Below are positions 5,818 to 60,425 of a DNA stretch of 64,000 bases, piece by piece. This stretch comes from Flaccisagitta enflata. Lineage: Eukaryota. The notes beneath the pieces are model-generated. The model saw only the letters and a list, made by a program, of their open reading frames with translations, was not told where the DNA came from and searched no databases. Made by a program: the position numbers and the translations under genes. Numbering within the stretch: the first letter of the stretch is position 1; every line of letters begins with the position of its first letter. Where the stretch lies: assembly GCA_965153355.1 (NCBI GenBank), contig OZ231126.1:32178001-32242000 (forward strand), written 5' to 3'.

Positions 5818-5832
5818 AATAATCACGCAAAA

Positions 5833-16466: not shown

Positions 16467-16619
16467 CTGAGTGTGTGTGGGACAGTGGGAATGTGTCCAC
16501 GAACGTGACTGTTGAGAGGTGAAATAAGAAGATTCGAAGGAAGTTTCGAAAGCGAAAAAGCTCCGTTTTTCTGCTCACTCATCTGACAAATATCGGAATC
16601 AGAGTTACAATTACAACAG

Positions 16620-16689
<70 letters not shown>

Positions 16690-23986: not shown

Positions 23987-24318
23987 CTCAGAGTGGTTTG
24001 GGAAAGTTGATAAGCTTTTCGGGCCAAACGAGCCTAGGCATGAAATTAACAGCTAGAAAGAGCAAATCCTCCCCTTTCAAATGACGCCGAGCAGAATTCT
24101 GTGCGACTGATAGTTATGGAGCTACGATCTTTTAAATGTTTTTTTTATTTATTCGCTTTATCTTTTTTTCCCCAAAGATCAATATTTTTAATTGATCTTA
24201 ATTTTGGGCTCTATGTAACATGAAGAAAAGAGTTATTTTGACTCTAGCTTTTGAATCACTTACATTTTACCTTGCTTGCTCATACTCTCTCGGGTTCTGT
24301 CTCTCTGTCTCTCTTTTT

Positions 24319-24980
24319 GGGCAGCGGCCCCGAAGGGGACGAAGTCCTGTAGAACACAGGGGGACTTTCGTTCGTCCATTCGTCCGTCATTCCGTTCGTC
24401 CCCCCTCAGGCCTCAAATCTGGCCTCTGAGACCTCAAATATGACCTCTCAGGCCTCAAAACCAGCCTATCAAGCCTCAAATCCAGCCTCTCAGGCCTCAA
24501 ATCCAGCCTCTCAGGCCTCAAATCTAACCTCTCAGGCCTCAAGTTAGGCTTCTCAGGCCTCATATCCTAATTCTGGGGCCTTAAACCTGGCCTCTCAGGC
24601 CTCAAATTAGACTACTCCGGCCTCAAATCAGCTATCTTAGTCGCAATTGCTCAAATGCTCTTAGGCTTCAAATCAGTCCTCTGACCTTTCAAGCCTTAAT
24701 CCAGCTCTCTCAAGCCTCAACTCCGCCCTCTCAAGCCTCCGATTGGCATTCTCAAGCCTTACATCAGCCTCCTTAGACCTCAGTTAAGGCTCTTGAAGGC
24801 CTTCAGTCAGCCCTCCATAGCATCTTATCAACTTCAGGCAGGACGAACGAAAGTCCCACTGTGTTCTACAGGACTTCGTCCCCTTCGGGGCCGCTGCCCT
24901 GCTTCCCCTCACTCACTCACAATCACTCAAAGCAGGGCAACGGGTATCGCTGACCACATATTGCCCTTGGGCGACCTGTT
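24319..24980 (+). mobile_element. Helentron/DINE-1-like element, family B
   Basis: Same ends and internal 21-mer as 22848-23986, with a shorter array. Confidence 0.75.
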
Positions 24981-24990
24981 ATCTCTCTCT

Positions 24991-25080
<90 letters not shown>

Positions 25081-25197
25081 TTCTTTTTCTCTCTCTCTCT
25101 TTCTTTCTCCCTCTCTCTTTCTTTCTCTCTTTCGCTTTCTCTTTTTTTCTTTTTCTCTTCTCTTTTCTCCCAGGATTTACGACTTTTTTCCTATCTA

Positions 25198-25268
<71 letters not shown>

Positions 25269-25290
25269 ATCTATCTATCTATCTATCTAT
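24981..25290. repeat. (CT)n and (ATCT)n microsatellites
   Basis: Directly visible. Confidence 0.95.
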
Positions 25291-25594
25291 ATTTCTATGC
25301 CTTTGAATCAGCTCAGCCAGTCTGTTCATCGTCCTTCTATCTGAAATCTGTTTACCTGAGTCAGTGTCTGTCTCTTTGTCTGACAAAATCATTTGGTGTA
25401 AAAAGTTGGTACGATGTTCCTCTCTATCATTGCAATTAAGTATGAAATCTAAACGAGCGTTGCCTGTTTATTCAATTCCAATTTGTTAGTTTTCCTTCTC
25501 CATATGACAGCGGGCCCACGAAGCCAACATTTAGGGTATCAAAATGGGTCAAAATAGAAAACATACATCAGTGAAAATAGAAAATCTAGTGAAT

Positions 25595-25730
25595 AACAAG
25601 GCCGGATACACGGCAAGACAGTCGCGGACGGTTGGGCAGGAGCAGTAATGCAAAAACCGCCCGGATTTCAAAAATGTGACGGACCGACCCACCAACCTAC
25701 CGACCGTGTCCGCGTGTCCGCGACTAAAAA
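25595..25730 (-). mobile_element. Helentron/DINE-1-like short element, family A
   Basis: AACAAGGCCGGATACACGG ... CGCGTGTCCGCGACTAAAAA. A related minus-strand copy lies at ~28354-28490. Confidence 0.7.
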
Positions 25731-26684
25731 TAATTGAGATAAGACATGCATGATATTTGAAAGCAAAATTTGCATTCACTCAGCAAGAGACTAAGATTCA
25801 GCCTATGTAATTGAGGAAAATTAACTGAAAATTTCTACAAATATCTTTTTTGTCACTGACAAGGGGTTGGTCGAAATTATAAGTTTGCATAGAAAATGAA
25901 AAAATGAAAAAACAAAGAACATAGTTCTCTTCCCAAATCGTTTTTAGAGAGAACTATGTTTTTGAAAATGCAAAATTTTTTCGGTTGTGGCTTTCTTCTA
26001 ATTTCAACCTCAGAAAATAGAAAAAATTGTCAACGAAATTTACTAAAAATCTTCATTTTCTTGGCATTTGCCGTGAGAATTGCTTATCAAAAGGCAACTT
26101 AGAGTGTAAAATATGAAACAGACATACATAACAAGTGTATCCAGTGACAACTTGAGCAATGAAAATATTTATAGAAAGATAATTAGTCCATTATTGATGC
26201 AAAAGCGGGGTGAAGCACTTCATTTTTCCCTGGCAGATTTGACGTCATATCCATTAGTTTCTTTCTTTCACAAATGATGCAACTTCTTTACATCGTTTCT
26301 CAAATTGAATCTTTGGAAACATCTATGGTAAGATCTACAGAAACATCTATGGTAAGATCTAAAGAGAGGATCTCCGGGAAGATCTATTGTTTTGCCTTTC
26401 CTCCCTCATTTACCAATGCCACTTTGTTTTACATTTATGTTTTTCTTTTCGCCGTTTGTGCATCAAACTCTTTCCTTTTTTATTTCTTCTCTCATAACTT
26501 TTGTTTGTCTGCTCTCGTGTTTGTTTGCTTCAAGTTTCCGTTTCAGGTTATTTACTTTCTTTTTCTTTTCAGCGTCTATCCACTGTCTGTCTTTCTTACA
26601 GTCCTTCCGTCAGTTTTTTGAACTCGCTCTGATCCCTCTACTTGTCTTTCTCTGTCTGACGCTGTTTGTCTTCCCATATCTTGC

Positions 26685-26783
<99 letters not shown>

Positions 26784-27341
26784 CCCTCTGCTGTCATTAA
26801 CTTGCTTAGCCTGGAGTCCATGTCATGTCCTCATCTCAACAATGTTTCTCAGCTTTTTCTTTTCTGCTATTTCTTGTTTTCCTCCTTTATTTTCATCTTG
26901 ATTTTATTGTGTTTTTCTTTTTGCACTCTTTATGGTGAAACAGTTCCTTTGCAAGCTCGGTCTATAACAAATCAGAATGGAGGAATGGCCTACACCGTCT
27001 TCGGTTGGAACTGTAAAATGCAAAACCTTTATAGCTCTTAAACCACCAAGAATTTTGAAGTAAACAATATCTATTTTAAAACCCATGACAAGTACACAGT
27101 TGCAAAGAATGTGAAACATATCAAAGTGGGCAGGTTAGGGAGGGGAAGAAACACGGGTTCTTTTACATTCTTCTCGTCTGTCACATGACAGTTACAACAA
27201 AGGCGTCTGTCAAATGACAGTTAAGACAGAGGCGTAGTACGGCTCCGCTTTTAACAAACCACCAGGAAAAAAATCATGAAATTTTGAGTGAATATTGGTG
27301 ACATGTGATGGTTTTAGCATGTTAAAGCTCAGATCAAAGTA

Positions 27342-27717
27342 CACTCATTTGTTTTTATAAGAACACGTTATTTTTTTCTGAGGCTCAGTGTTCTTATTTC
27401 TTGGGCGGTTTTAGGCTCAAATTGTTCTGAGATTGTTCTTATTTTTTCAATCGTTAGCTCATACAAGAATGTTCTTTTATCTGGTTACTTAACTAATTCA
27501 AACCAAAATATTATCTATAACTAAATCTAATTTCAATGAAAGTGATTTAAGTCAACCATTCTTTCTGATTTTCATAGTTCCTAAAGTAAATGAAATATGA
27601 ATGTTCTTATATTCCCCTTTAGTGAGGCTGACAATGTTCTTGCGATTGTTCTTATTTTTTTCCAGATCTGAGCCTCAATGTTCTTATAAACAAGGTTCTT
27701 GGTCAAAGAAATGAGTG
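27342..27717. mobile_element. MITE with TA TSD
   Basis: TA|CACTCATTT ... AAATGAGTG|TA, with internal repeated TGTTCTTAT motifs. Related to 48214-48653. Confidence 0.75.
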
Positions 27718-27981
27718 TATAGAAAAGGTAAGGGGAAAACAAAGTATTGAGCTTTGACATGCAAAAAGTGTCACATGTTACTAATGTTCATTGAAAATTT
27801 CAAGATTTTTTCCCTAGTGGTTTAGGAGCTATAAAGGTCTCGCATTTTACAGTTCCAACCAAACACAGTGTAAAACAATGAATCCATGTTTACAGTTACA
27901 TATCTACGAATTTTATCAACATCATCTCAGTCAAAAATTTACTCACCTGCAATTCCAGATCAGAGTCCGCATGAAAATAAA

Positions 27982-28316
<335 letters not shown>

Positions 28317-28882
28317 AAAAAGTTGTCCAACAGGATTCTGATAAAAAGAAAAAAACAAGGCATCCAGTCGCGGACGGTTGGGCGGGAGCAGTAATGCGGA
28401 AACCGCTCGGAATTCATGTTACGGACAGATCTACCGACCTACAGACCGACCAACACGGCAAGGTCTAGAGTCGCGTGTCCTCGACCAGAAAGTCTCTCTT
28501 TTAATCTATCAGATTTTTCATGTGTTTTCTTTTTTTTTCATTTTCTTTACATGACCATGTAAGAAATATTCCGCCCTCGCATTCTATAACTTCTCTTATA
28601 AGGAAAAGCTTTTAGTGTCCAGAAGTTAAGAATGAATCTGCGTTTCATAAATTCTATTCCACAGATGGTAAAAAAAGGAAGAAATATGAGACACAATAGC
28701 AGAAATCAAGAGGAAATGTAAGAGACAAGGTTGCTGTTCCATTTTCTCTGAATTGTATTTCGGGATGACAGACAAACTTTGACAAGAGTTGGAAGTTTGG
28801 AGCCTCCAAAATTGGATGGGAAAGAAATACACAAAATTTGGTTTCTCATCAACAGAAACAACGACAGCAGCAGCGTTAGTGA

Positions 28883-30473
<1,591 letters not shown>

Positions 30474-30553
30474 AGTAATTGGATGCCCCACCAGCGGGGT
30501 GCTTCACTATACTTTTTTGAGAACATTTAAAAACATTCATGCCACAAACAACT

Positions 30554-31332
30554 AACAGGTCGCCCAAGGGCAATATGTGGTCAGCGATACCCGTTGCCCT
30601 GCTTTGAGTGATTGTGAATTGGAGTGAGGGGAAGCAGGGCAGCGGCCCCGAAGGGGACAAAGTCCTGTAGAACACAGGGGGACTTCCGTTTGTCCTGCCT
30701 GAAGAAGTGGATGAGATGCCATAGAGGGCTGACTGAAGGCCTTTGAGAGCCTAAACTGAGGTCTAAGAAGGCTGATATAAGGGCTGAGAATGTCAATTGG
30801 AAGCTTGAGAGGGCTGACTTGAGGCTGGATTAAGGCTTGAAAGGTCAGAGGACTGAGAGCAATAAATTGAGGCTGAGACAGCTGATTTGAAGCCTGAGAG
30901 GCCTAATTTGAGGCCTGAGAGGCCAGGTTTGAGGCCTGAGAATTTGGATTTTAGGCCTGAGAAGCCTGATTTGAGGCCTGAGAGGTTGGATATGAAGTCT
31001 GAGAGGCTAGATTTGAGGCCTGTGAAGCTGGATTTGAAGCCTGAGAGGCTGAATTTGAGGCCTGAAAGGCCAGATTTGAGGTCTCAGAAGCCAGATTTGA
31101 GGCCTGAAGGGCCTGATTAGGCGGCTGGAGGGGGGACGGATAAACGAACGAACGAACAAACGAACAAACGAACGAACGAACAAACGAACGAACAAACGAA
31201 CGAACGAACGAACGAACGAACGAACGAACGAACGAACGAACGAACGAATGAACGAAAGAACGAACGAACGAACGAACAAACGAAAGTCTCCTTGTGTTCG
31301 ATAGGACTTTGTCCCCTTCGGGACCGCTGCCC
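30554..31332 (-). mobile_element. Helentron/DINE-1-like element, family B (minus strand), with (GAAC)n
   Basis: Reverse complement of the family-B ends and 21-mer array. Confidence 0.75.
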
Positions 31333-33212
31333 AAAGAGTCAAGAATACTGGAGGCATGCCCAAACATTGACGTTCTTATGCAGATGGTGTTTCTTTTCTG
31401 AAGTCTTGATACATTGTATTCTATTCTTATCTTCATCTTCGTTATTGAGAGAGAAAAAAAATTGAAAGTTTTTCAGCTTCAATCTGACTAGTCTGTAAAC
31501 AGTTTCAGACATGGTCTCAGGTATCTTACATGATATAGGAAGGTGAACTCGTTTTCACATGATTTTAATGTGTTTTTTAGTCGCGTGCTACGCGACTCCA
31601 CACCCGCTTTGTCGGTCGGTCCATCCGTCAGTTTATCTATCAGTCGGTTTGTCACTCTTTACTTCTTGGGCAGCGGCTACAAAGGGCCGATGTACTGTAG
31701 GGCACAGGGGTGAATTTCCAGACGTCCATACGTCCGACCGTATGTCCGTACGTACGTACGTACGTCCCCCCCCCAAAGCTTCTCAAGCCTCAATTCGAAT
31801 TACCGACAACCTAGGTCATAAAGAGGCTGTGGGCAATGCTTTTTCCTTCATAATTCCCAGGTAATGCTCAGGTTACGCTCAGGTTATTCTCAGGTTATTC
31901 TCAAGTTATTCTCAACTTTTCTTTTGCTGCCAAAACCGACACCGACGACGACGCAAACTGTTCCAAGGTGGATTTTTGTCCTTTTTTTGCATCTTTATGC
32001 AGACGTTGTTGTTAAAAACATGTTCATTTCTTCCATTTTTCTTTTTGCCGATGCCGACACCGACGACGACGACGTACGCTGTTATTTTTTTTTATTTGGT
32101 ATTCTTTTGTCATTGTCATTGCCAAAAACATATCGGGTATGAAAACCTCAAAATTCTTTGAAAATTAAAGCAAGATAAGTAATCATTTTTTTTTACTAAA
32201 CAACAATTTGACATACTTTTCATAGCATTTTTTTTAGTTTATGATATGTTAAGGGGACTAGATTTTTCAAAAAAATCACGATGATAAATCATCATAAAAT
32301 GCCAAACCATTACCTAAAAAAAGCTTTTTTCAGAATTGAATTATCTCTATTACTTCCGGAATTATGCCGTCGTATAATGTTCCAAACGAGTTGAATCATA
32401 CTGTATCTATATCTCAAAGTACAGTGAAAAGCATTTTTCCATATGTTTGATCCATCCCTTGTTTTGAGGCGCATATCTTTTAAACAATTTGGAGAAAATA
32501 TTTTTGGCTAGTCTCATCAAAAAGGGCATTGAAAAATCTTTCAGAAGCTCATGAATTTCGTCCATTTTCATTCAATAATGGCAATACAGTGATATCTCAA
32601 AGGTACAGTAAAAGTGAATGTTTTCGGTATTAGACTCATCCCCTTTTGTCCAGCTATATCTTTTGAGACAGAAAAAATCTGTCGGTGTCAATTTCAAATC
32701 CCAATTAACTGTTTAGGCAGCGATTTTGAAAATTTTCCCATGTGAACAAATTGATTGATAATTTCAGGATTCTGGCCCTCAACAACCCAAAGCACGGGCA
32801 AAGTTTTTTGCAAACATCTTCGATGCAAAGACCAGATGTAAAATGCAAGCCAAGAGGCCAAAAGTGGAGTAGCTTAAAGATAATATGGATGAGGATCGTG
32901 TTTCATTTTGTATTTTAAGTATTGATAGTTTTAAGCTGGTTAAGAGCACCTTTCAATTTCTGTTAAAACCTGAAATTTCTTGAATTGCCATGTAAAGTGA
33001 TGTATTTCTTTAAAAGTCAAAAAATGGTGATTCAATCTTGTCTTTGATTACTCATGGATCCGTTATAACAGTATTTGTGATTTCTGAGCATAACAGCCCC
33101 TGCCCACCCAAAATTTAGCCCCTGCCCAATGATTGACTGCCCCTGCTCCTGAGTGTACTGCCCCTGCCCACCCACCAGCGACTGCTTATTGGCCTCGTTT
33201 CCAGCCTTGTTT

Positions 33213-36079: not shown

Positions 36080-36440
36080 GGAAATTCACCCCTGTTTCCT
36101 ACAGGACATCGGCCCTTTGGGGCCGCTGCCCTGCTCTCACTCCAATTCTTCAGCTAATCACTCCATGCAGGGCGTCGGGTACCGCTGACCATGTGCGATA
36201 CTTGGATGACTTTTCTTTTTTTTTTGCGGTATTTGGCCTCACTGCTCCTGCCCAAATGATCAAGTGGTCTCAAATACAGTCCCTGCCCACCCGCATGTGG
36301 CTGGGGTAGCCGTGTATCCAGCCTTGTTACATCTTATATTTATGTGATAACAAGGCTGGATACACGGTCGCGCGCGGGTGGGCAGGGGACGTATTTAAGG
36401 TCACTTCTTCATTTTGGCAGGAGCAGTGAGGCCAGAGACC

Positions 36441-36789: not shown

Positions 36790-38262
<1,473 letters not shown>

Positions 38263-39954
38263 TCACACTTTCCTTGTCCTTTTTTTTCCTACCTTGTCCT
38301 TTTTGCTTCACTCCTCCTTGATCTTCTCACATCAACACTGAGTCTTGATTAGCCATTTCCTCTCTCACGGCTCAAACTAAGACACAGGGGGAAGGAGAAA
38401 CAAAGACACAGACAGACTCACAGAGAGACAGTAACAGAAACAATCAGATCCCATTAGACACAGACAGAGACAGAGAAACAGACACGGACAGACCCAGATA
38501 GGTACAGATGGAACAAAGACAGTCATAAGCGGCACAGAAAGACAGACACAGATTTAGAGAATTGAAGAGACAACAGACAATAAGATACAGACACTGGAGA
38601 GATAGTTGTCCCAACGGGACAGTCAGTAAAACAAAGAGAGCTGTAGAAACAGCAGGAAGTTAGAGAGAGACAGACAGACAATAGTGGTCCAATGGGAACA
38701 GTTAGAGATACTAAGAGAACTAAAGCAACAACTGAAAGTTAGAGACAGACAGACACGCTAGTCAGAGAGACAAAGAGAACAGAAGAAATAAGTCAGAGAC
38801 AGACCCTGAACAGATAGTAGCCTAAAGGGGAAAGGCCATTGCAAAGCCTTTTTTGGAAAGCGTCAGAGTTTTATCTCGTTCTAATGTAGAGTTGGAGTTC
38901 ACACCTTTGCCCATGTGCTCGCGTGTACCGAATCAACCCATGTTTGAGTGAGAAGGTGCATCAGCATTGGTTAAGACGGCAAATTTTTGAAGGAAAATAA
39001 AGTGTTTTACCATACTTTTTGCATTATTATCAGGACAATAGTTAGGCTGGAATGCTTCAAGTGGACAAATTTTCTCTAAAGATACTTGGTGCATACAATT
39101 ACTATCTTGCTAATATGTATATCGACAAGCCTAATGGGACATAACTACCAGAAAAATAATGCAAACATAGAAAAATCGGTGACGCCTGGAAACTTCATCG
39201 AATTTCTGATTGAATGGCGCAAACCGCATTGTTCTAAGTTTGTTCGTTTAGAAATGACAAGCAAAACAAAGTTACTACTTCAAGTGCAAAATGGCGAAAA
39301 AATTGCATTTTAGAATTTAGTAGATTGTGGAAGACACCAATTGAGGGAGAGTGATACTCTGGCGCACCACACCCTGAAAGCGAAGCATTCACTATAGCGT
39401 CAAGATGTTTCCAGACCTCAAAAGTGAAGAATTTTTGTGAATTGATAACAAGAAGTTGCAGAATTATGAATGCGCCATATGGAAGGCCAAGCTGAAAAGT
39501 ATCGCTCACTAGATTTGGGAGAACACCACACCATCATACCTTCAAATGCTTTACAAAAGCATACCAAGGCACATGAAAGCTTAAGATGATACCTAGGAAG
39601 GTCTAACAAAGTGAAAGTCGTATCTTACAAATGTTCTATGCATTAATTGATAAAAAGTTGAACTGTATTGTATCTTGTCGATATACTTTTTAGCAAGATA
39701 GTATATCAAATTTTGAACTAAAATTTAATTTGAACTATGCAGTTCACATGAAAACAAGGAGGAAAATGATGACTTTTAGTTCATTTCTGCTTAAAATTTT
39801 TTTTTTTCTTAGGTCGAAATTCTAAGAAAGCCACACACAGAGAAATTTTGCATTTTAAAAAACATAGTTCTCTCTGTAATCGATTTGGGAAAAGAACTAT
39901 GTTCTTGTTTTTTGCATTTTTTCAATCTCTATTAGCGATGCGAATATGTCTCAT

Positions 39955-42266
39955 GTTTTTCATCAAAAGCCCTCTGTCAAAAGTGTGCCTTTGAACTGTC
40001 ATGGTGACACCCATTGCAGACAAAGATTGTGAAACTATGGGGAAGAGATAGACGTCGTTATCAATTTTTTATGATAGCTTGAGTATTTTTCCTTCCCGGG
40101 AGTCACTATGACGATTCCTTCCTCGATGTGTCCTTTATATGATACAATGTTAAGCAAGGTGTCAGCCTGAATATTTACCGCATCTATCTCCTTCATAAAC
40201 TGTGCTTAAATCTACGGGGCCCTGTCCCGAGCATTTTTGTCCGCATGGCTGTGGCCCAGTAGTGAACTTAAGACCGGCGCCAGGAAGTTACAGGAATTTA
40301 GAAGTTTTCTTCAGATTTCCGTTTCCTTCGTAAATGCAATAAATTGAATTAGCTAATTGACGGACCTATGAATTGGATATTCTTTACCCAGTTTGGACGT
40401 ATGCATGCTTGATGAGTCAGCAGACAACAGGAAAACATTGAATGTCCTCATGTAATAAATGCCATGAGCCATGCTACTCTCTATGCAAATTCAGAATTTC
40501 GACCAGTCCCCTATCAGTGACCAAAAATTCAAAAAGTAGAAATGTTCAACATTTTTTTTTAAGTTTCATTGGCTAAACTTGGTCCTCTTGCTAAATTAAT
40601 GCAAATTTTTTTTTGAATGCTATATCTGACCCATCTCATTTACTTTTATTCACTTGTTTATGCATTTTCATTCATTTTTTCTGTTTTGACCTTCTTTGAA
40701 ACACAAATGTTGGCTTTGGAGGGACGCCGTCTTAAGGTTGTATTATACTGTTTGCCTATATGTCTAAAACTGAATCAACAAATATGTGTGTATGGTGGTG
40801 CATAACCATTGGTTGGGGCGGAATTGATCGAGTTTAAAATGATCGTCTCCATGTCCAAGTGAACTGGATTAACCCATGTGTGCGTTTGCAGGTGCATCAG
40901 CATTTAAGGTAGTATTGATTGAACTGTAACTTATCGCTCACGTGTTTGTGTGAACTGAATCAACCCATGTGTGCATGTGCAAGATCCAGTTTCGGCAAAG
41001 AGGGAATGAGGCGCACGGCATGGGTATTTGGTGACTCTACAGCCTGATTTGTCCATCGGTCAGTCGGTCGGTCACATATGACTTTCTTATGATTTCATTT
41101 TTTTGAACTCTCTGCTCCTGCCCAAATGGTCTAGTGACCTCAAATATGGCCCCTGCCCACCCGCATGCTACTTCGGTAGCCGTGTATCCGGCCTTGTTTT
41201 CATGCTTCTTACAATTTCTTTCATCAGAATTGGTTGCTACGAATATTTTATGTGCTAAAATGTTCAACAAAATGCTACCATGTGCTACAATATGACTAAG
41301 TGGGCTATAGTGTAGTATCACTTGGTGCCATAAGTGTTTAGTAGAGATAGAGGAATAAAGTCAATTTAGTTTAAAAAGAACCTATGCATAATTGCAAAGT
41401 AAAGTCAAATGAGCACAATATTCAAAATTTGTAGGCCAGAAGCGAAATCAGAACTGTATCCCATGTAAAGAAACAAAGAGAGATAAATGGACGCCAAGTG
41501 GCATTTATGATGGAAGACTGCAAGAGTACAAGACTGCCACTCAGTTGCAGATTGCCACTAACTGAGATTGATAATGGATCATAATCAACTGACCTCGTCC
41601 ATCCCATCAGAAGCCTGCCTGTCTCAAAACTACTAACAGAGCAGGGGAAAACGTTGGTGAGTGAGCTTGGGTGCCATTCTCCATCTGTTTGTTGTTTGGG
41701 AGTTTTGGTCATCCAATGTTGGAAAATTACCGTCATCCACTTAAATAGCATGGCTCATGGCATTTATTATATGAGGACATTCAATGTTTTCCCGTTGTCT
41801 GCTGACTCATCAAGCATGCATACGTCCAAACTGGGTAAAGAATACCCAATTCATATGTCCCTCAATTAGCTAAGTTCAATTTTCTGCATTTACGGAAGGA
41901 AACGGAAATCTGAAGAAAACTTCTCCATTCCTGTAATTTCCTGGCGCCGGTCTTAAGTTCCCTACTGTGCCACAGCCATGCGGACAAAAATGCTCGGGGC
42001 AGGGCCCCGTAGATTTAAGCATAGTTTCTGAAAAGATAAATGCGGTAAAAATTTGGGCTGACACCTCATATGAAATTGTATCATATAAAGCACACAATGA
42101 AGAAGGAATCGTCATAGTGACTCCCGGGAAGGAAAGATACTCAAGCTATCATTAAAAATCGATGACAACGTCTATCTCTTCCCCATAGTTTCACGATCTT
42201 TGTCTGCAATGGGTGTCACCATGACAGTGCAAAGCACACTTTTGACAGAGGGCTTTTGATGAAAAA
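39955..42266. repeat. Pair of ~520-bp diverged inverted repeats (39955-40476 and 41746-42266)
   Basis: CATCAAAAGCCCTCTGTCAAAAGTGTG ... GCCATGAGCCATGCTA matches the reverse complement of the second arm. Confidence 0.85.
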
Positions 42267-43076
42267 AACAAAAGACAAAATCGCATCCCTAACTTGAACC
42301 ATTTTCATCCGTAATTCATCAACACTGCATCAAGAAGAAGGACACATAACTTCCACCCTAAAACCTCATCAGGACTGTATCAAGATCACATCCAGACAAC
42401 ATCGAGACAACAACAGAACAGAATCAGGACCAAATCAAGACCACTTTCAGACAACATCAAGACCTCATCTAGACAACATCAAGACCACATCTACGTAACA
42501 TCGAGACAACAGCAACAAAATTGCATTAGGACCAAATTAGGATCATACAAAGTACAAAATAAGCAAACAAGGTAAAGATGCACCGTGTGGATCGTTCGCG
42601 TGACGGACAGACCAATCTACTGAGCGACCAACGGACAGACACAACCGGTTACAGAGTTGTGGTGGCGCATCTAAAATTGCAAAAGAAAGGAAATATAAAA
42701 GAATATATAAAAAGTGCCTCATACAGACGGTTATCCGAAAGCATCAATGATTCTCATTCTAAACGATGCGCCATGAAAACGCCACGAGATCGACCAACGA
42801 ACTGTACATACGTTGATACAACTTGTACCTTGTTTTCATACAAGGGCCAAGAGGACTTTTCATGTAGCCCTTCCTTGGCAGTTATAGAAATCAAAAAGAA
42901 AGGAAAGAAAGAAAAAACCGATAGAGAAAAAGTCAAGTTTTCAAAGTCTTGAAGAGAGTTGAAAGGAAATATTTTTGAATTTGGTGGAGGATTATTAATT
43001 TTTTTTATCCTTTTCCGCAGTGACAAAAACCCAACCAGTGACACGCCTAGAGGGAAATCAAAGAGACTATGAAGTA

Positions 43077-43138
<62 letters not shown>

Positions 43139-43302
43139 AAGAAAAAGAAAGAGAAAGAGAGACAGACAGACAGACAAAAAAAGAAAAAAAAGAGAGACCT
43201 AACCATTCCTGGCATTCCAAAAAGAAGACACACACGCAGACGCAGACACACAGAAACACACACAGAGACACACACAGACACACAGACACAAAGACACACA
43301 CA

Positions 43303-43413
<111 letters not shown>

Positions 43414-44392
43414 GCACACACACCTCGAACAAGGCAAGGTAGAGCCGAGAGAGACAGATACTAAAGATTGGGAAAAGAAATGGGAAATGAAGAGAGTAAA
43501 GGAATAACTGTGAGACAAAGTGGATTCTCCCAGGAAAGATGAATGAAGTTGAACTTGACGAGAAGAAATTGAACTCATTCTCCTTCCTCCTTACCGGTTG
43601 GCCTCTCATTCCGCACTAACATCCGGTCTCTTTTGAGGTACTCCTCAACCTCCTTACCGGTTTGCCCTCCACCCCGTGCTCACTCTCGACCTCTTTTGAA
43701 GGGCTCCTCTACCTCTTTGTCTATGTCCTTACCGGTTCGCCCACTATCACATGATCCCCCCCCCCCCTTCTCTTTATAGTTGCTACCCCGACCATCCATC
43801 ACCTGTTTGTCTGCCTTCCCACCAGTTCGCCTCCTGTCCTGCGTTCCCCCCTCTCTTCATTCGGCCCCTTAATCCATTTTGCATTTTCCGTAATTACCTC
43901 CCTTCATCTTTGTCTGAGGCTCCGTGCAGATACCCTCTTTCGTTACTTCCAAACTGCCATGGCTCTTCGTTTGTTTGTCAGTCAGTCAGTCAGTCAGTCA
44001 GTCAGTCAGTCAGTCAGTCAGTCAGTCAGTCAGTCAGTCAGTCAGTCATTTCAAGAAACGAGCTTGCAAAGACACGTATCGCAAAATAATAACGCAGGCA
44101 AATATTTTTGACAGGACATCATCAATGTTAACGGAGTTTTGTAGTGATTTGCATAGTTACCATTCGAGGGGCCTGTCATTTGGTTGGTCAGGGACTCGGT
44201 TTGTCATTCCTGTCAACAGTCCAACTGAAAGTCTGTAGTCTATAGTCTGTACAGTTGGCCTTGAACTTGGTTTCGTGTTTCTCGTGACTTTGACTTTCGT
44301 CTTTGAATGGCGATGGGAAAAAATACTGAAAGCAAAAATGCAAAGAAAAACCATAACGATAAAAATGAGAATGTGAATAGGAAGGAGGTACG

Positions 44393-44450
<58 letters not shown>

Positions 44451-44770
44451 CAGATAGACAGAGCGACAGAAACATCATAACAGAGAGAAAGAAACAGAAA
44501 CACAGAGAGACAGAGGGAGACAAATATTGGGATAGACAGAGAGACAAACACCGAGAGAGCAGAACGTCATACTGGGTTGCCACCGACTTTTCTTGAAGAC
44601 CCGATCAGAAAGAAAGAAAGAAAGAAAGAAAGAAAGTAAGAAAGAAAGAAAGAAGGAATGTAAGAATAGAAAGATAGAAAGAAAGAAAGATATGAAAGCC
44701 ATCAAAGGCAAAAGAATGAAGATAAATGGAAAGTAATGTGAAGGAGAAAACTAGGTCATGTAATCGTTGT

Positions 44771-44883
44771 GACTACTGTACGGCTTCAGAAACATGCTTA
44801 GGGCATTGGCCGAGCTATTAATATCAAGAATTCGTTAACATGTGAAAGTAATAGGCCTTCGTTTCTGAAGCCGTACAGTAGTC
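44771..44883. mobile_element. Tiny MITE or hairpin with a 23-bp perfect inverted repeat
   Basis: GACTACTGTACGGCTTCAGAAAC ... GTTTCTGAAGCCGTACAGTAGTC. Confidence 0.7.
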
Positions 44884-44994
44884 TCAACAAGAGTTTTGTC
44901 ATCAAACTGACGGCATCGATTCAGGATCTTTGATAAGAGTTGACTGATTATATCTATAGGTTATTGTGACGGTTCTTCTATTGGTCTGATTATC

Positions 44995-45561
44995 AACTAG
45001 TCATCCAAGGATCGCACACGGTCAGCGGTACCCTATGCCCTGCTTGGAGTAATCAAGTGAAGTAGTGGAGTGAGAGGAGGGCAGCGGCCCCAAAGGGCCA
45101 ATGTCCTGTAGGGCACAGGGGTGAATTTCCAGACATCCTGAGGCGGAATTGAAGTCGGGACAGCAGAATTGAGTCCAACAGAGCAGATTCAAGGTTTTGG
45201 GGGCATGCTTGAGGCCTAGAGGACAAACTTGAGGCCTGAAGAGTTGATTTGAGGCCTCGAGGGCGGTTATGAGCTCTGGAGGGCTGATTTGAGGTCTTGA
45301 GGGCAGATATATGGTCTGGAGAGCATATTTGAGCTCTCCAGGGCTAAATAGAGGCCTGAAAGGGCTAATTTGAGGGCTCAGAGGGCCAAAATCAGGCCTG
45401 AGACTGCAGACTTGAGGCTCCGATGGCCAAGGGGGGGGGACGGATGGATGGATGGAAGGACGGACGGACGGATGGATGGAAGGATGGACAGATGGAAGGA
45501 CGGACATCGCCAAATTCCCCCCTGTGTCCCACAGGACATCGGCCCTTTGGGGCCGCTGCCC
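44995..45561 (-). mobile_element. Helentron/DINE-1-like element, family C (minus strand)
   Basis: Reverse complement of the ends of 14889-15543, with (GGAT/GGAC)n. Confidence 0.7.
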
Positions 45562-46196
45562 AAAAAGCAGAAAACAAGACTATTCCGGCTTGTCTGACGG
45601 TCGGTTAGTTGGCCTAATGAAAAATGCAGCCTTCGCGTCACTGTCCCTGCCCATCAACATGCGACTGGGGTAACAGTGCAGTGTAGCCCTCCACTTTCCC
45701 CTTCACGTAGGTTTCTCTCGTTCTCATACTTGATCATTCTTCTTCCTATCCAATTTCCAATTATTTCGATACAATTTCGACTCGATTTGCCCTTCTTCCT
45801 TTTTTTTTTCATTCTTTTTTTTCTCTCTTTTCTCTTCTCTCCTTTCTTTTTTTTCCTCTCTTTCTCCCCCATGCTAGTTCATCAATTACGTCCAACCGCG
45901 CTTGCGCTGCGGGGAGACTCAAACCTCCCTCAAGACACTCGCTTTTTCAGTGCTCTTCCACCAGCTTTTCTGTCTTTTTCTGCTTGGGCTCTTAATTTCT
46001 AATCGCGTGCACGCGACTCTACACCCAACTTTGTCCGTCCGTCCATCCGTCCGTTGGTCGGTCGGTCTGTATGTCAATCCCTCACGCTTTTAGATTTTTT
46101 TATAAATCTTATTTCCTTCAGTTATTTCAAGTCATTTAAGAGTATATTCAGTCATTTTAAGTCATTCCAAGGCATTTTGTAAGTCTCGCACGCGAC

Positions 46197-47200
<1,004 letters not shown>

Positions 47201-48213
47201 CGAGCAAGAAAGAGAGCTAGAGAGAGCTGGAGAGACAGAAAGCCAGTGACAGAGAGACGAAGACAGAGACAGAGAGCAAGTCCGACAGATAGACCGAGAT
47301 GAAATTAGATAAAGAGAGAGAGAAGAGAGAGAGAGAGAGCGAGAGAAAGCTAAGAGAGTGGGAGGAAAAGGCGTCTATAAACAAAATTAGTTTTGAGCTC
47401 TGAAAAGCAAAGTGGCTTTCAGAAAATGATACTCCCTCGGTTGAAAGCCATCCTCACAACATAGGAAGCACCATCAGCTTCATCTCAAAAATGAATTGGA
47501 GAAAAATATGAAGATATAATTTAGTGTTGACTGCAAATAGGGTAGTTTGGGAGAATTAAAAAAAAAAGAGTGGCGTTGGTGCATTTGGATGGTTGAGCTG
47601 GTTCTCGGATGGAAGTCGAGCCGAGGTGGGATGCAAAAATTCTATCGCTTGTATTAGGAGAGAAAATGACCACGTTTTGTTCTGATTCCTTTGAAAATGC
47701 AAAACTGTCTCTCCCTCACAGAAGCCTAGATTATGGAGGCTTGCGCTTAGACGCAAAATTTGCATCAGAGTAATGCAAAAACTTCTTATAACGCTATGAA
47801 ACTTATCAAGGAATTAGCCACCCAACCTGCTCGTAGAATAATTATTATTTAATCAATGGAATCTTCCTGTTTGAGATAAAAAGACATACAACAAAAAAAA
47901 CTGAGTTTGCATGGGCAGATATTTTGAGGGAGAAATGTGTCTTAAAACTACAATGGTAATGAGTGAATTGGGTGATAAATGATAGAATTTCGGTGATGTG
48001 ATGGTTTGGTCATTTGCATTTGCTCATTAGAAATATTAAATTTGCATTGAAAATTGGATGACCAAAAAAACAAGAACATAGCGCGCTCAGGAACACCAAA
48101 AGTCCTTGAAAATGTCAGTTTCAGCTCCAATTTGCAGATTTAGAATGTCCAACCGAGTGGACTTGAATTTATTGTTCAAAGAAACAACTTGTTTCTAACT
48201 TCATTTCTGCGTA

Positions 48214-53488: not shown

Positions 53489-55420
53489 GAAATCAAAGGT
53501 TTCAGTTGAAGTGGATAAGAAAGGGTGAAGGGGAGCCACGTGACAGGAAAAAGGTGGCAACAAGGGTGCGCAAATATCAAAGAACGGTAAAGGAACAATA
53601 ATTAAAGGCATATTTGCCTTAATGAATTTGATTCAAATTCTGAACCCGGCAAATGAAATTACCAATGCTTTAGATGACTCGTTTTCTTTTGACTTCTCTT
53701 TCACTCAATGCTCTGTTGCATATTGACCTTCTTTTCTGTTATACCACTTGGATAAAAAAAAAAGACGCACCTATTCATTGATTGATAAAATAGATATAAC
53801 AAATGATTCTAACTATTTCTAAAAAAATATTTTGAAAATTTCTGAATAATCTTTCAATTTAGCTTTATCCCAGGTCTGTATCTCAAACGGTTTAGAAGCT
53901 AGAGCCCTGCAAAGAGAAGCACCAATTTGTGAAATTGCATTGTTACACAGGGTTTACGAAATGTTTTCACGCAAACTGATGCCATTTCTGAACGAAAAAA
54001 GATAGCAATACCAGATTAGTGCCCAATGAAATTAATTTCAAAGGGCTTTCAAATAATCTAAGATTTTACTTAGTTTCATTGAAAATCATAGGCAAAATTA
54101 GCCTATTCAAAATACCGTCTTTTTTTTTATCCACGTGGTAAGTTATTCATATAAAGACGCATATATATTTCTGGCTGGCACTGACGGGAGGTTGGCGGGA
54201 CCATCAATAGTCTGTACGCGAATCGCCCGACGCGTGATGCATCTAATGACCCAATTGGCTTGCTCAGAACAACGTGCCAGAAATCCTGACTCAGGATTCC
54301 ATCTTCCGGTATTGGCCTTATTCATACGTAGCGCATTACTTTGATCAACGACAACATTTTCGACAGATATTTAAGTGTCTGAAGTTGGAACAAATCGTTG
54401 ATTGTTGGAGCAAAAAAAAGAAAAAAAAAAAACAAACCAAAAACAAAAACCAAAAACAAAAACGACATAACTGAATATTCTTCAAAGGCTCTTATTTTAG
54501 CCTGGTAGGTGTTGGGTAATGGGTAATGTGTAATAGAGGGGGTCATAGAGTGATGTTTTTGGAAAATCATCACAGAACTCCGGATTCTGAGGGTTTATTA
54601 AATGTGCAAAAGAGGGAAAAAAATTTTAAGCCCATAGGTATTGAGGAATAATCCTCCAAAATGCGTCAAAGTTGAGGTGTCAAACCCGCAAAAATCGCCA
54701 AAATCGCCAAAATCGCCAAAATTACATGTTTTACTATTGTTTGTAAATTGAGTTTAATGGTAGTATTGACATTGGAATCATTCATAACATACCTCCTCTT
54801 ACTCTTATTTTATCATAGAATAGTTCAGTTTATCATATTCTCCCATTTAGATAGCTAAAAAGTAGGTCCAATTACTACCAAAGATAGGCGAAAATCATCA
54901 AAATTGTCAAATAACCAGATTCTCGCATTTTTACTTTAGATTATCAAATGAAGTAAGTCCTCAGAATCTTAATACAATCATTCTTTTCTAACAGGATACC
55001 TTTGATAAAATGATTACTTGGTGTCTTTTCATGTTCATATCCCCAAAGTAGAGTATTACCATGTCCATTAAATTCAACAGATTATACAAAGCTTTTCTCA
55101 CTTCAGTGCTCAATCTTCCGCCTCCAGGACTTGCAACCTGGCATAGGTTTTTTACTAAAGTTTTTTTTTGTTTTTTTTATTTGTTTTTTTTAAATTTTTT
55201 TTTTCTTTTTTTTGTTTTTGTTTTTGTTTGTTTTTTAATCAAATTTCCACAAAAATGTGGCGGAATTGGGCCAAACTGATAAAATGTTTGGCGAAGCAAC
55301 TGATTTTTAACCACTTAGGAACAGAAGACAGAATAAATTTCATAGAACAATTGGGCAAATTGTAAAACATTAAACTTTTTTTTGGGGGGGGGGTTGGGTT
55401 TTTTTTTCTTTTTTTATCTT

Positions 55421-55597
55421 TTTTAGTCGCGGACAAGCGACTCTATAAGAGGCTTTGTCCGTCCGTCCGTCCGTCCGTCCGTTGGTCCGTCGGTCCGTCG
55501 GTCCGTCGGTGAGCACGAGTCGAAAAGTGGGAAAACGCGCATTTTCGCCCCTGCCCACCCGTCCGCGACTGGTATTGGCCGTGTATCCGGCCTTGTT
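55421..55597 (+). mobile_element. Helentron/DINE-1-like family A element inserted in the left TIR of the Tpt1-carrying transposon
   Basis: TTTTAGTCGCGGACAAGCGACT, (GTCC)n, CGCGACTGGTATTGGCCGTGTATCCGGCCTTGTT. Absent from the right TIR. Confidence 0.8.
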
Positions 55598-55905
55598 AAT
55601 CTAATTTCCACAAAAATGTGGCGAAATTGAGCCAAACTGACAAAATGTTTGGCAAAGCGGCTGATTTTTAACCACTAAGGAACAGTTGAATCATATTGAA
55701 TAATTGAAACATTTTGCTTTGAAAAGAGTTGTAATTTGAGAAGTCAAAAAAAGACTGCAGTAAAAAAGAAGTATCAATAAAAGAGATATAGTAACTGAGT
55801 GGGACCTGTGCAAGATCACCAAAACATCAGTTACTGAAATGGATGAAATGGCAATTGGGCAGAGTGTTGCATTGAATAATCAATTAATTTGCAAAACGAT
55901 CTGCA

Positions 55906-56665
55906 TTGAAAGGATGCAAATTTGAACTTCAAAAGGAGTTAGATCAGCTTCGTAGCTCTGGCCCAGAAGCTGGATCAGTCCAAGAGCTTAGTCTGTGGCT
56001 TCAAAGCTGCTCGATCTTCCCCCAACCTCCTCAGGTCTCACTGATTAAAAAGGTTAGCCAAGATTTGGAAAAAGTGTTGGCCTTTAAGAGGCTAAGGGAA
56101 GATGAAAAAGATCCACTGGCCCGGCTGCCAATTGCTGAAGGCATGCAGATCTCAAAGAAAATGGCGTTCTTTTCACGGCACAATATGCCTGAGGGGAAAT
56201 ACCCAAGGCAAGATGGGTCAGTACCAATCTCAGCTCTTGAGGTATCACTTGGTGTACCCAGCATAAAAATTTTGCGAGCAGTGAGCCCTGAGTATGATAT
56301 GGAAAAGAAGAGGCGCTATGTGGTGCTTGAATATTTACATCCCAACACCACCGTGACTGTCAGAGTTACCGCTCTTGGAGGTCACAGCATCAAAATACTG
56401 GCACGTCCTGGCCACTTCCTCCTGGGAAAAGAGCTTTGCCCTCTTCAACGACATCAAGAAACATGGATTCATCTCTCAGCAGGGGAGGAAAGGTGGGATC
56501 AATTTTTGCCCTAAGGAAAACAAGTATCGCCTTGGTTCAACTCATTCAGTCATACTTGATGGTCTTGGTTACCAGTTCTTTGGTAATCGCTTCTCTGATG
56601 TTGTTTATGGCGTGGGAAAGTGGGAAGGCGACACATGGTCATGTCAAATCCCAGCAAATTCCTGA
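55906..56665 (+). pseudogene. Degraded, divergent Tpt1/KptA (RNA 2'-phosphotransferase)-like coding sequence
   Basis: Ordered motifs in the first frame: ISKKMAFFSRH, DGSVPI, KKRRY, VRVTALGGHS. After a frameshift at ~56430-56445: DIKKHGFISQQGRKGGINF, R...VILD, GYQFF...DVVYG...IP. These parallel Tpt1 motifs SK-x-LS-x-x-LRH, DG-x-V, K-x-RF, IRA-x-QGHS, I-x-x-x-GL-x-x-x-x-R-x-x-(V/I)H, G-x-x-F...V-x-L. The HGT motif segment is missing at the frameshift. Confidence 0.65.
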
Positions 56666-58734
56666 AATTCACCTTGAAAAGACTTTGAGAAATCTCCAAT
56701 AAAAATCTTTGCAAGGCATTTTTGAAAAATGATTTTTGGATATGAAATTTTTTCAACTTTGTCAAAGGCTTTTATCGGGTAACTTGATTTTATTTTGAAG
56801 ATGGTAGTTGAGGTCTTAGTGGTTAAAAATCAGCCGCTTTGCCAAACATTTTGTCAGTTTGGCCCAATTTCGCCATGTTTTTATGAATATTTGATTAAAA
56901 AAGAAAAAAAAAAGAACCAAAAAAAAACAAAAAACAAAAAAACAAAAAAAAATTTACTGTTTAATGCTTTACAATTTGCCCAATTGTTCTATGAAATTTA
57001 TTCTGTCTTCTGTTCCTTAGTGATTAAAAATCAGCTGCTTTGCCAAACATTTTATCAGTTTGGCCCAATTCCGTCACATTTTTGTGGAAATTTGATTAAA
57101 AAAAAAAACAAAAAAAAAAACAAAAAAAAAAAAAAAAAACAAAAAAAAAAACAAACCAAAAGAAAAAAAATAAAAAAAATAAAAAAAACAAGTAAAAAAA
57201 ACTTTAGTAAAACACCTATGCCTATGCCAAGTCCTGGAGGCGGAAGATTGAGCACTGAAGTGATAAAAGCTTTGTATAATCTGTTGAATTTAATGGACAT
57301 TGTAGTACTCTACTGTGGAGATATGAACCTGAAAAGACACAAAGTAATCATTTTATCAAAGGTATCCTGTTAGAAAAGCATGATCGTATAAAGATTCTAG
57401 GACTTACTTCATTTGATAATTTAAAGTAAAACATGCGAGAATCTGGTTATTTGACAATTTTGATGATTTTCGCCTATTTTTGGTAGTAATTGGACCTACT
57501 TTTTAGCTATCTACATGGGAGAATATGATAAACTGAACTATTCTATGATAAAATAAGAGTAAGAGGAGGTATGTTATGAATGATTCCAATGTCAATACTA
57601 CCATTAAACTCAATCTACAAACAATAGTAAAACATGTAATTTTGGCGATTTTTCGCGATTTTTGCGATTTTCGCGGGTTTGACACCTCAACTTTGACGCA
57701 TTTTGGAGGATTATTCCTCAATACCTATGGGCTCGAAATTTTTTTCCCTCTTTTATACATTTAATAAACCCTCAGAATCCGGAGTTCTGTGATGATTTTC
57801 CAAAAATATCACTCTATGACCCCCTCTAATGTGTAATCAACTAGAAAAGTATTCGTAGTTAGGTGAAGGTATGTGAAAATTACTTTGGTTGATTCCAGTT
57901 GGGACACAGATTTGGGATTGCAAAGCCAAACACCGTGGATCTAATACGCCGCTGTATTCTTTCAAATGCGGCCAAGCAGGGGTCAGTAGCTCAATTATGT
58001 TAGGAGCAGCAATTTCCCAAAATTGATGCTTATTTCTTTATTTCTTATTTCGATGATATTTCTAAGTGTAGGTGTACTTATTTCCAAGATTATATAGTGG
58101 AAAACACGATAACCTCATGCAAGACTTTTGAATAACTGATTTCCTACCCGTTTTTTCTGTTTCATTATACCACAAAGATGAGTGTCACTGCCACAGACAA
58201 AGATGATTTACTGATCAATATGGAACCGCTTCTTTTGAAAGATCCGCAAGCAAACAGCGCTGGCGATGTTAACGAAACTGCTGTTGAACAAAAGTCGGAC
58301 CAATTTCAAGGTGGACCTGACGACTCTTAACGCAAAAGAAAAAAGAAAAACAAGGCCAAGTAGGCCGATAAGGTGCGACGTGTGGATCGTTGAACGAATG
58401 CGTTACCCGACCGACCAACAGACCAACCGACCAACCAACCGACCGACGGACACAGCCAGTTATAGAGGTGCTTTGTCGCACCTTAAAAAAAACTCATTCG
58501 GAATAAGCGTTTTTTCATTCATTGAAGTTAAAATTTTCTTTCTCTCAATACCGCAACAGTGGCTGATATCATCCGGTATTAAGCCATGAAGCTAATCATT
58601 GAAAACTTTTCTGCTCTTATTGCCCTCACTCATTAAGAGTCAATATGCAAATTAGCATGAACCGACAACATCCAGTGGGCAGGTGTATAACAAACAATCT
58701 ATTTTTCTACTTTAATCCATGGATAGTTTGTATT

Positions 58735-59241
58735 TTTAGTCGCGTGAACGCGACTCTAGAAGCCGCTGTGTCGGTCGGTCGGTCGGTCGGTCCGTAACGT
58801 AACTTTTTTGAAATATGGCTCTAATCTTCATTTTAAAGTTACTTTAGGGTACTTAAGGGTACCTAAGGGTACTTAAGGGTACTTTAGGGTACTTAAGGGT
58901 ACTATAGGTATTTAAGGTTACTTTAGGTACTTTTGGGTACTTTAGGGTCCTTAAGGGTCCTATAGTGTACTTAGGTTACATTAGGTACTTTTAGAGTACT
59001 TTAGGGTTGTTTAGGGTACTTAAGGGTACTCTAGGGTACTTTAAGTACTTAAGGTACCTTTAACTTCATTACCTTTACCTATATTACCTTAATTACCTTT
59101 ATTTCCATTATCAACGTTATCAACGTTATCAACTTTATTACCTTTATTACCTTTATTACCTTTATTACCTTTATTACCTTAATTACCCTAATTACCCTAA
59201 TTACCCTTATTACCACGCGACTAAGGTTTGTTGACCTTGTT
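58735..59241 (+). mobile_element. Helentron/DINE-1-like family A variant with internal 10-bp and 9-bp tandem repeats
   Basis: 5' TAGTCGCGTGAACGCGACT, (GTCG)n, (AAGGGTACTT)n, (TTATTACCT)n, and 3' CACGCGACTAAGGT..ACCTTGTT. Confidence 0.7.
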
Positions 59242-60021: not shown

Positions 60022-60425
60022 GAATCTGTCCTCTCAAGACTGAAATCTGCCCTCTCAGACCTCAAATCTGTCCTCTCAGGCTGTAAATCTGCCCACTCAG
60101 ATTCAAGGCCTGTGCGGGCAGATTTCAGACCTGAGAGGGCAGATTTCAGGCCTGAGATGGCCAGGGGGGGGGCGAACAGACAAACGGGCGAAAGGACGGA
60201 TGAATGAAAGTACCCCTGTGTTCTACAGGACTTTTTCCCCTCCTCTCACTCCCATTCACAATCATTCAAAGCAGGGCAACGGGTATCGCTGACTACATAT
60301 TGCCCTTGGGCGACCTGTTGATCTTTTTGAGCTCACTGCTCCTGCCCAAATACCCATGTGACCTTTTCTATCACTACCCCTACCCACCCGCACGCGACTA
60401 GGGTAGCCGTGTATCCGGCCTTGTT
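60022..60425 (+). mobile_element. 5'-truncated family B element followed by a family A 3' half
   Basis: 21-mer remnants and the family-B tail to 60319, then CTCCTGCCCAAAT...GGGTAGCCGTGTATCCGGCCTTGTT. Confidence 0.65.

Follow-up and report, generated by a model that had tools for sequence, protein, structure and literature searches.

A typical hAT element is flanked by an 8 base pair (bp) target-site duplication (TSD) and ends in YARNG (PMC3014272). The consensus nTnnnnAn has been reported for the TSDs of Hermes integrations (PMC2803484), subterminal repeats are ascribed to hAT elements (PMC4763223, PMC3260210), and a hAT element with a captured histone H3 in Pseudocercospora provides a precedent for transduplication (PMC6710886). 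The other known system of concern here is the Tpt1/KptA/TRPT1 enzyme family. Roles have been described in Tpt1 for a tetrad composed of Arg-His-Arg-Arg, for the His of that tetrad, and for an HGT motif; the HGT motif contacts the adenosine ribose of nicotinamide adenine dinucleotide (NAD+), and the tetrad His contacts the 3'-PO4 of the splice junction (PMC6333775). Tpt1 enzymes are also known to ADP-ribosylate (ADP, adenosine diphosphate) 5'-phosphates (PMC6182162, PMC12678800), and the role of TRPT1/Tpt1 in taxa without a yeast-type tRNA ligase is described as unknown (PMC6333775, PMC6573784). We present a locus in which the two systems meet. In a stretch of 64,000 nucleotides (nt) of Flaccisagitta enflata DNA (contig OZ231126.1, positions 32,178,001 to 32,242,000), which we call the window, positions 54534-57828 form an element with long terminal inverted repeats (TIRs) placed around the decayed copy of a Tpt1-like gene.

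The explanation that we favor, and to which we give a moderate probability, is an old and immobile non-autonomous hAT-like element that holds a captured, 5'-truncated and frameshifted gene copy. A transposase supplied in trans would have recognized the TAGAG termini and the subterminal 9-mers of the element, and would have made the 8-bp duplication on insertion. The core would be an acquired, 5'-truncated and later frameshifted copy of a cellular gene, the source being a divergent eukaryote-type Tpt1/TRPT1 paralogue of 311 amino acids (aa) that is extended at its N-terminus by a basic and helical region of about 105 residues. Read-through transcription of the element would produce at most a long hairpin RNA. 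The window locus itself is a dead relic, for which we expect no function. The homology of the core to Tpt1/KptA/TRPT1 is confirmed, as seen through its intact relatives.

Inverted arms and target-site duplication

A repeat search identifies four collinear pairs of inverted segments, with 87-98% complementarity, that bound the element at 54534-57828 (3.3 kilobases, kb):

54534-54712 with 57650-57828: arm pair, 96%
54709-54932 with 57429-57652: arm pair, 98%
54963-55133 with 57228-57398: arm pair, 94%
55148-55375 with 56959-57186: arm pair, 87%

In blastn, the left arm and the reverse-complemented right arm (54534-55375 / 56959-57828) form one single alignment of 872 columns, with 41 mismatches and with 7 gap openings that add up to 32 columns. 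Each arm has two copies of a unit of about 93 nt, at 55232-55324 and 55593-55685 in the left arm and at 57010-57102 and 56815-56901 in the right arm. The inner unit at 55593-55685 pairs with the one at 56815-56901, and also with 57010-57102. The pairing of the two inner units gives an arm length of about 1.0-1.15 kb, and it leaves 55686-56814 (1.13 kb) as the unique core. The features of the element and its flanks are the following:

54526-54533, no strand: left TSD, ATGTGTAA, by comparison of the flanks
54534-55375, plus strand: left arm, main block, with terminus TAGAG...
54687-54722: subterminal 9-mer CGCCAAAAT, four copies in the left arm, about 155 nt from the left end
55147-55236: T-rich internal array of the left arm
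55376-55592, no strand: stretch present in the left arm only, with a nested repeat (about 55420-55605) resembling a short interspersed element (SINE) or a miniature inverted-repeat transposable element (MITE) and ending in a (GTCC)n tail
55593-55685, plus strand: inner unit of the left arm, duplicate of 55232-55324
55686-55917, plus strand: 5' portion of the unique core, in which similarity to codons 1-40 of the intact relatives is not detectable
55918-56688, plus strand: intronless Tpt1-like pseudogene that corresponds to codons 37-311 of the 311-aa relatives (tblastn)
56689-56814, plus strand: 3' portion of the unique core, which includes AATAAA at 56698-56703
56815-56952, minus strand: inner unit of the right arm, duplicate of 57016-57151
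56959-57828, minus strand: right arm, main block, with terminus ...CTCTA
57098-57202: A-rich array of the right arm
57639-57675: mirrored subterminal 9-mer array of the right arm
57829-57836, no strand: right TSD, ATGTGTAA, by comparison of the flanks

The 8-bp sequence ATGTGTAA is found exactly and directly outside both termini (54526-54533 and 57829-57836). Both ends of the element read TAGAGGGGGTCATAGAGTGAT(G/A), each on its own strand. The end pattern has no other match in the window, and none of 100 shuffles matches it. The insertion target lies inside a (TGGGTAA)x3 mini-repeat at 54513-54534, whose last unit, a variant one, is the left TSD. As a control for chance, we slid an equal spacing along the window, and the flanks agree at 8 of 8 positions in 5 of 60,687 placements, the real site being counted as one of them.

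These results bear on whether there is a transposon here in the first place. A local inverted duplication, or an assembly palindrome, could have formed around a pseudogene, with flanks that match by chance. Only one copy has been seen, and a left flank that sits in a 7-mer mini-repeat makes a chance match slightly likelier. The duplication, however, is complete and falls exactly at the ends of the inverted repeat, at the low chance rate of the control, and both the termini and the subterminal repeats are transposon-like. The (GTCC)n-tailed repeat is nested in the left arm only, which indicates that it was inserted after the arms were formed. With 41 substitutions and several indels between the arms, and the nested repeat in just one of them, the structure is no assembly palindrome and the copy is not young. 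We consider an origin without a transposon very improbable.

Two further analyses of these regions gave null results. Folded as DNA, the left terminus shows nothing beyond what shuffles show (z -0.85), and a protein search with a 73-aa open reading frame (ORF) encoded in the arm returned no candidates, a weak negative as gene callers may skip such an ORF.

The (GTCC)n-tailed repeat belongs to a dispersed type, with (GTCC)n or (GTCG)n tails. In addition to the instance at 55420-55605, we observe it at 25591-25651, 33160-33211, 36281-36337, 41149-41198, 58733-58795 and 60377-60425.

Superfamily of the element

From its ends, 54534-57828 is likely a non-autonomous hAT-like element with long TIRs. 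The termini, TAGAG at both ends, satisfy YARNG. The TSD ATGTGTAA fits nTnnnnAn, as its position 2 is T and its position 7 is A. There is no transposase: the arms have no long ORF, no transposase-like ORF occurs in 54400-57900, and the ten longest ORFs of the arms and the core flank match no Pfam family with an expectation value (E) below 0.009. An element that has no transposase is at best non-autonomous, and the superfamily call is one drawn from the ends. A sequence-only reading of this stretch had reported TIRs of about 1 kb, an exact TSD and the lack of a transposase at 54534-57828, and all three are found.

Another superfamily is an improbable assignment. The candidates are a Mutator-like element of the Pack-MULE type, with AATGTGTAAT as a 10-bp TSD, or a long-TIR element resembling P or Foldback elements. 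The flanks do agree over 10 bp, and arms of about 1 kb with internal repeats look more like those of foldback elements or MULEs than like those of a typical hAT element. In foldback and Galileo-type elements a short unique core sits between long inverted arms with internal repeats, and Pack-MULEs are the classic carriers of gene fragments, which they hold between long TIRs. The TSD lengths and the termini reported for these groups differ from 8 bp and TAGAG. Reading the TSD as 8 bp gives an element TAGAG...CTCTA, in agreement with YARNG and with a TSD that fits nTnnnnAn, while reading it as 10 bp costs the inverted repeat its complementary T/A end pair. The element retains no transposase remnant of any kind that could decide between the assignments.

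A truncated and frameshifted Tpt1-like gene in the core

A word-indexed search identifies two intact proteins close to the core. P0001, with 311 aa, is the representative of a 90% cluster of 45 sequences, and P0002, with 303 aa, is the representative of a cluster of 6 sequences. The members of these clusters come from ENA or Logan assemblies, in contigs of about 1-5 kb. In a tblastn search of the window with P0001, codons 37-311 are collinear with 55918-56685 in one piece. The stop codon TGA is kept at 56686-56688, and the AATAAA at 56698-56703 is not followed by a poly(A) tract. Compared with P0001, the pseudogene has four indels, of which two are frameshifts:

about 56433/56434: in-frame deletion of 4 codons
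56445-56447: frameshifting deletion, with loss of residues 217-223, including HNT, the equivalent of HGT
near 56555: in-frame deletion of 8 codons
near 56657: frameshift of 1 nt

Outside of the breaks (written as X), the window copy has about 92% aa identity to the P0001 group over 255 comparable residues, and 86-87% to the P0002 group over 247 residues. Four changes at sites conserved in the family are private to the window copy: L122S, P199R, G297C and F170Y. All four codons of the catalytic tetrad are retained, and the HGT equivalent is absent, as residues 217-223 with H-N-T are deleted. The sequence-only reading had named four tetrad candidates, which do align with the Arg-His, Arg and Arg of yeast Tpt1, and the frameshift or deletion that it placed at the HGT equivalent is real. 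The peptide strings that it quoted are all present as well, in the frames 55888-56514 and 56357-56665.

The same reading had noted about 80 extra N-terminal residues. The N-terminus of the window copy is not complete: the first 36 codons of the intact relatives are absent. Codons 1-36 have no tblastn match within the element. When the first 40 residues of five relatives are compared with all three frames of 55600-55960, the scores stay within those of shuffles. The frame 55764-55925 resembles an N-terminus by eye, a resemblance that turns out to be chance when scored against shuffles. The region 55686-55917 could be a capture breakpoint, a deletion breakpoint or former intron sequence. Since there is no start and the NAD+ lobe cannot be encoded, the window copy is a pseudogene. 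The frameshifts sever that lobe, so the two-lobe fold of the family is not found in the window copy as encoded.

Taken by themselves, the ORF pieces of the window have no match of the PF01885 type in Pfam at E<=10. A match to a tRNA-intron lyase in the Pfam/NCBIfam scan (E 0.056) is at chance level, and the phmmer matches of the window pieces and of P0001 to PDB sequences (E >=0.28) are chance as well.

Intact relatives and the Tpt1/KptA/TRPT1 fold

The likeness to Tpt1/KptA that the sequence-only reading had proposed is borne out by the intact relatives of the pseudogene. Searched with phmmer and no length limit, a set of 1.84 billion representatives yields 100 clusters (50% identity) at E<=1e-3, including 60 at E<=1e-10 and 13 at <=1e-30. 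We worked with two alignments. Alignment A1 (n=23) includes P0001, P0002 and 21 of the longer phmmer matches, and alignment A2 (79 rows) includes P0001, P0002 and 77 of the 100 matches, chosen by hand. All 100 relatives have at most 365 aa and none is fused to a transposase, which lends no support to the suggestion of a possible fusion to a larger ORF. No NCBI or UniRef origin and no functional name occurs among 40 of the 45 members of the P0001 cluster, all 6 of the P0002 cluster, all members of 10 further clusters, and 26 profile matches. P0001 has no relatives in phage records (tblastn) or in IMG/VR viral contigs, and neither P0001 nor P0133 has any in JGI metagenome contigs.

At the sequence level, P0001 matches Pfam PF01885 with E 1.8e-4 and 22 bits, under the gathering score of 26. 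For the A1 members, PF01885 matches 15 of 23 at E<=0.01, the best at 1e-14. Used as a profile, A1 finds yeast Tpt1 (7yw4) with E 4.1e-13, mouse and human TRPT1 with E 4.3e-4 and 1.5e-3, and T. kodakarensis KptA with E 0.73.

At the structure level, an AlphaFold 2 (AF2) model of P0001 built on A2 has a predicted local distance difference test score (pLDDT) of 89 and a predicted template modeling score (pTM) of 0.71; the fold from the single sequence (pLDDT 35) is not usable. In a Foldseek search of the PDB, ranks 1-20 (19 chains shown) are all Tpt1/KptA/TRPT1 structures, 19 of them at E<=0.001, and the best is human 7yw3 (E 2.7e-9). With VIA-align, residues 107-311 of the model superpose on mouse 7yw2 with Z 18.1 and a root-mean-square deviation (rmsd) of 2.4 A over 184 residues, and on human TRPT1 7yw3 with Z 17.5 and rmsd 2.7 A over 183 residues. 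The ligand-bound or closed structures of archaeal and bacterial KptA give Z 13.4-15.2. The next chains are unrelated and match in the winged helix only (Z <=6.4). The intact P0001 model thus has the two-lobe fold of the family, a winged-helix RNA lobe and an ADP-ribosyltransferase NAD+ lobe. The ESM Atlas adds no usable feature match; its one structural row, PF01885 at TM 0.38, is below the bar.

The N-terminal extension of P0001 is modeled as a basic stretch and, after it, a long helix at residues 10-49 and two shorter helices. The pLDDT of residues 21-50 is mostly 84-91.

Active-site residues across the family

Aligned to yeast Tpt1, P0001 places R123-H124, R169 and R237 at the Arg-His-Arg-Arg tetrad, and H218-N-T220 at the HGT motif. 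Five residues are invariant in A1 (R123, K167, R169, H218 and T220, 23/23 each), and R237 is present in 21 of 22 members. The tetrad His is the variable position: H124 is found in 10 of 22 members, and the others have W (9), D (2) or K (1). The complete tetrad, as judged from these alignments, is a property of the P0001 lineage and not of the whole family. The His of the canonical V-H-L strand is replaced by Asn in 20 of 22 members and preceded by a G-G pair, and a PPGH motif is specific to the family (P199 in 21/23, G201 in 23/23). The full-length members provide a natural series of active-site variants, with Trp in place of the tetrad His in 9 of 22.

Given a variable tetrad His, substrate recognition is probably unlike that of canonical Tpt1. 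Members that lack the His may no longer read the internal splice-junction phosphate and may prefer other phosphates. Based on the model and on the aligned residues, the intact proteins of the family probably perform an NAD+-dependent ADP-ribosylation of an RNA or DNA phosphate, either to remove a 2'-PO4 or to cap a 5'-phosphate.

Captured fragment or cargo

The sequence-only reading had held the sequence too divergent for a recent capture of host TRPT1. The core is no orphan: an intact 311-aa gene that it matches at about 92% protein identity occurs in many public contigs. The window copy thus seems to derive, fairly recently, from a gene of a divergent Tpt1-like family, and not from canonical TRPT1. 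By structure the family is nearest to the mammalian enzymes, and by sequence to the yeast enzyme. As phage records and IMG/VR contained nothing related, the simplest reading is that the family arose within eukaryotes; a prokaryotic or viral origin is not indicated.

How the gene came to be between the arms can be explained in two ways. The first, which we rank above the second and hold to be somewhat more likely than not, is that the pseudogene is a relic of gene-fragment capture or of deletion. The single copy observed in DNA has lost its 5' end and has decayed, and no member of the family is fused to a transposase. The catalytic residues are deeply conserved at family identities of 25-60%, which is the pattern of a cellular gene family and favors the capture of a fragment. 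So does the known ability of hAT elements to transduplicate host genes (PMC6710886).

The second explanation is that the Tpt1-like gene is genuine cargo. There would be intact elements with the whole 311-codon gene, and the enzyme would work for the element, perhaps through ADP-ribosylation of DNA or RNA ends while it transposes or when it conflicts with host silencing. The window copy would be a decayed derivative with an internal deletion. The close lineages, together with the many truncated and frameshifted variants in the 90% clusters (of 45 and 6 members), are the pattern expected of an amplified family. Nor is there an NCBI, UniRef or functionally named record in the clusters, as far as their members were read, or in the 26 profile matches, and the core retains a stop codon and an AATAAA. 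Against these points, codons 1-36 and the promoter-proximal part are missing from the only DNA copy seen, no relative is fused or longer than 365 aa, the variants are equally explicable as alleles and assembly fragments from many samples, and catalytic conservation at 25-60% identity is how an ordinary host gene family behaves. Cargo with a role in transposition, as the sequence-only reading had proposed, is less likely than capture; the 5' truncation looks like fragment capture or internal deletion. We regard genuine cargo as unlikely, while keeping it as the most serious of the rival explanations.

A more specific form of element-borne gene is more doubtful still. Long-TIR hAT-like transposons of a marine animal lineage could have acquired a divergent TRPT1-like family and amplified it, with expressed, intact element-borne copies that act on DNA or RNA ends. 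The enzyme, predicted to be nuclear, would for instance cap 5'-phosphates with ADP-ribose at excision breaks or on silencing RNAs in a conflict between transposon and host, and the mobile family would include the window copy as a decayed member. In titles and abstract openings, we found no literature report of a Tpt1-like gene in a transposon.

Returning to the captured, 5'-truncated copy in an old hAT-like element, several observations weigh against it. The arms, at 1 kb, are atypical for hAT, as the usual hAT inverted repeats are tens of bp long. No other copies of the termini or arms are found within the 64-kb window, and with a single arm copy seen, both the mobility of the family and the transposase superfamily are inferred from one copy. 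At least three lineages of the protein can be told apart at 86-92% identity (the P0001 type, the P0002 type and the window copy), and truncated or frameshifted variants are many, both in the 90% clusters and among the 100 representative matches (P0031 and P0057, for instance). Several lineages and many truncated variants hint at several genomic copies, unlike a single host gene. The intact 311-aa proteins are found on public contigs of 1-5 kb, and the element has codons 37-311 only; if intact 311-aa genes lie inside such elements, the gene could be true cargo, and the window copy a deletion derivative. Finally, with Asn in place of the V-H-L His in 20 of 22 members, NAD+ use by the intact proteins is not assured.

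The worthwhile lead, rather than the dead locus, is the divergent TRPT1-like family, which has no name in any record examined. It is a family of at least 100 sequence clusters (50% identity), all seen in marine assemblies only, that has an added N-terminal module, an invariant H-x-T, three conserved Arg and a variable tetrad His. Its natural variants make it possible to ask which substrate, a 2'-PO4 or a terminal phosphate, is recognized by such Tpt1-fold enzymes. Through its transposon context, the locus is also one of the rare cases in animals of a gene, or part of one, carried between TIRs of kilobase length. Should intact copies turn out to be borne by elements, nucleic-acid ADP-ribosylation would be linked to transposon biology.

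Other features of the window

The window is repeat-rich eukaryotic DNA, largely of low complexity, and Rfam has no match anywhere in it. In a listing of sequencing runs, two runs of an 'organism A' contain 0.36 and 0.34 of the sampled words, marine metagenomes 0.10-0.26 and four marine metatranscriptomes 0.08-0.12, figures that we take as a label only. At 5818-9248 on the plus strand, a multi-pass membrane protein is encoded in two long frames that overlap, of 542 and 630 aa from stop to stop. Their matches to the XK-related family PF09815, an animal family, are weak to borderline: E is 5.2e-4 for the first and 5.4e-6 for the second, which at 26 bits barely exceeds the gathering score of 24.8. 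The two frames are probably parts of a single host gene that a frameshift or a short intron has divided. At about 16500-21250, the frames of both strands are made up of short peptides repeated in series (SESVVSI... / ETTDSEI...). A higher-order repeat measures about 1.3 kb, and the AT skew is strong (-0.35 to -0.39); this region is a satellite-like tandem array of several kilobases. The regions 22800-31500, 37300-38350 and 42750-47400 include many long microsatellites, such as (CT)n, (CA)n, (CAG)n and poly-purine runs, as well as coding-looking repeats of the 'ASNPASQ' type.

Comparison with known systems

The element shares with foldback or Galileo-type elements and with Pack-MULEs its long, repetitive arms around a short core. 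With hAT non-autonomous elements it has in common the 8-bp TSD, the YARNG ends, the fit to nTnnnnAn and the short subterminal repeats. It is also like a hAT transduplication in having no transposase and a decayed insert derived from a host gene. It differs from hAT elements in its arms of about 1 kb, and in that one copy is seen, with no amplification evident. The gene captured in the Pseudocercospora hAT element is reported as a histone H3 (PMC6710886), whereas the insert here comes from a Tpt1-like ADP-ribosyltransferase gene.

For the protein, the closest described systems are the eukaryotic TRPT1/Tpt1 enzymes (PF01885; 7yw2 of mouse, 7yw3 of human and 7yw4 of yeast), which have the whole two-lobe fold in common with P0001. 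The motifs of yeast Tpt1 (L-R-H, K-x-R, G-H-S, H-x-T and the R-containing motif) align with those of the family. Identity between TRPT1/Tpt1 and P0001 is about 24-25%, and the family differs from the canonical enzymes by its basic N-terminal extension, which adds about 105 residues. The KptA structures (9ld6 of T. kodakarensis, 8tg3/8tg4 of A. pernix, 8tfi of P. horikoshii, and 6e3a) show the same fold as P0001, and these archaeal and bacterial enzymes are structurally farther from it than the mammalian ones.

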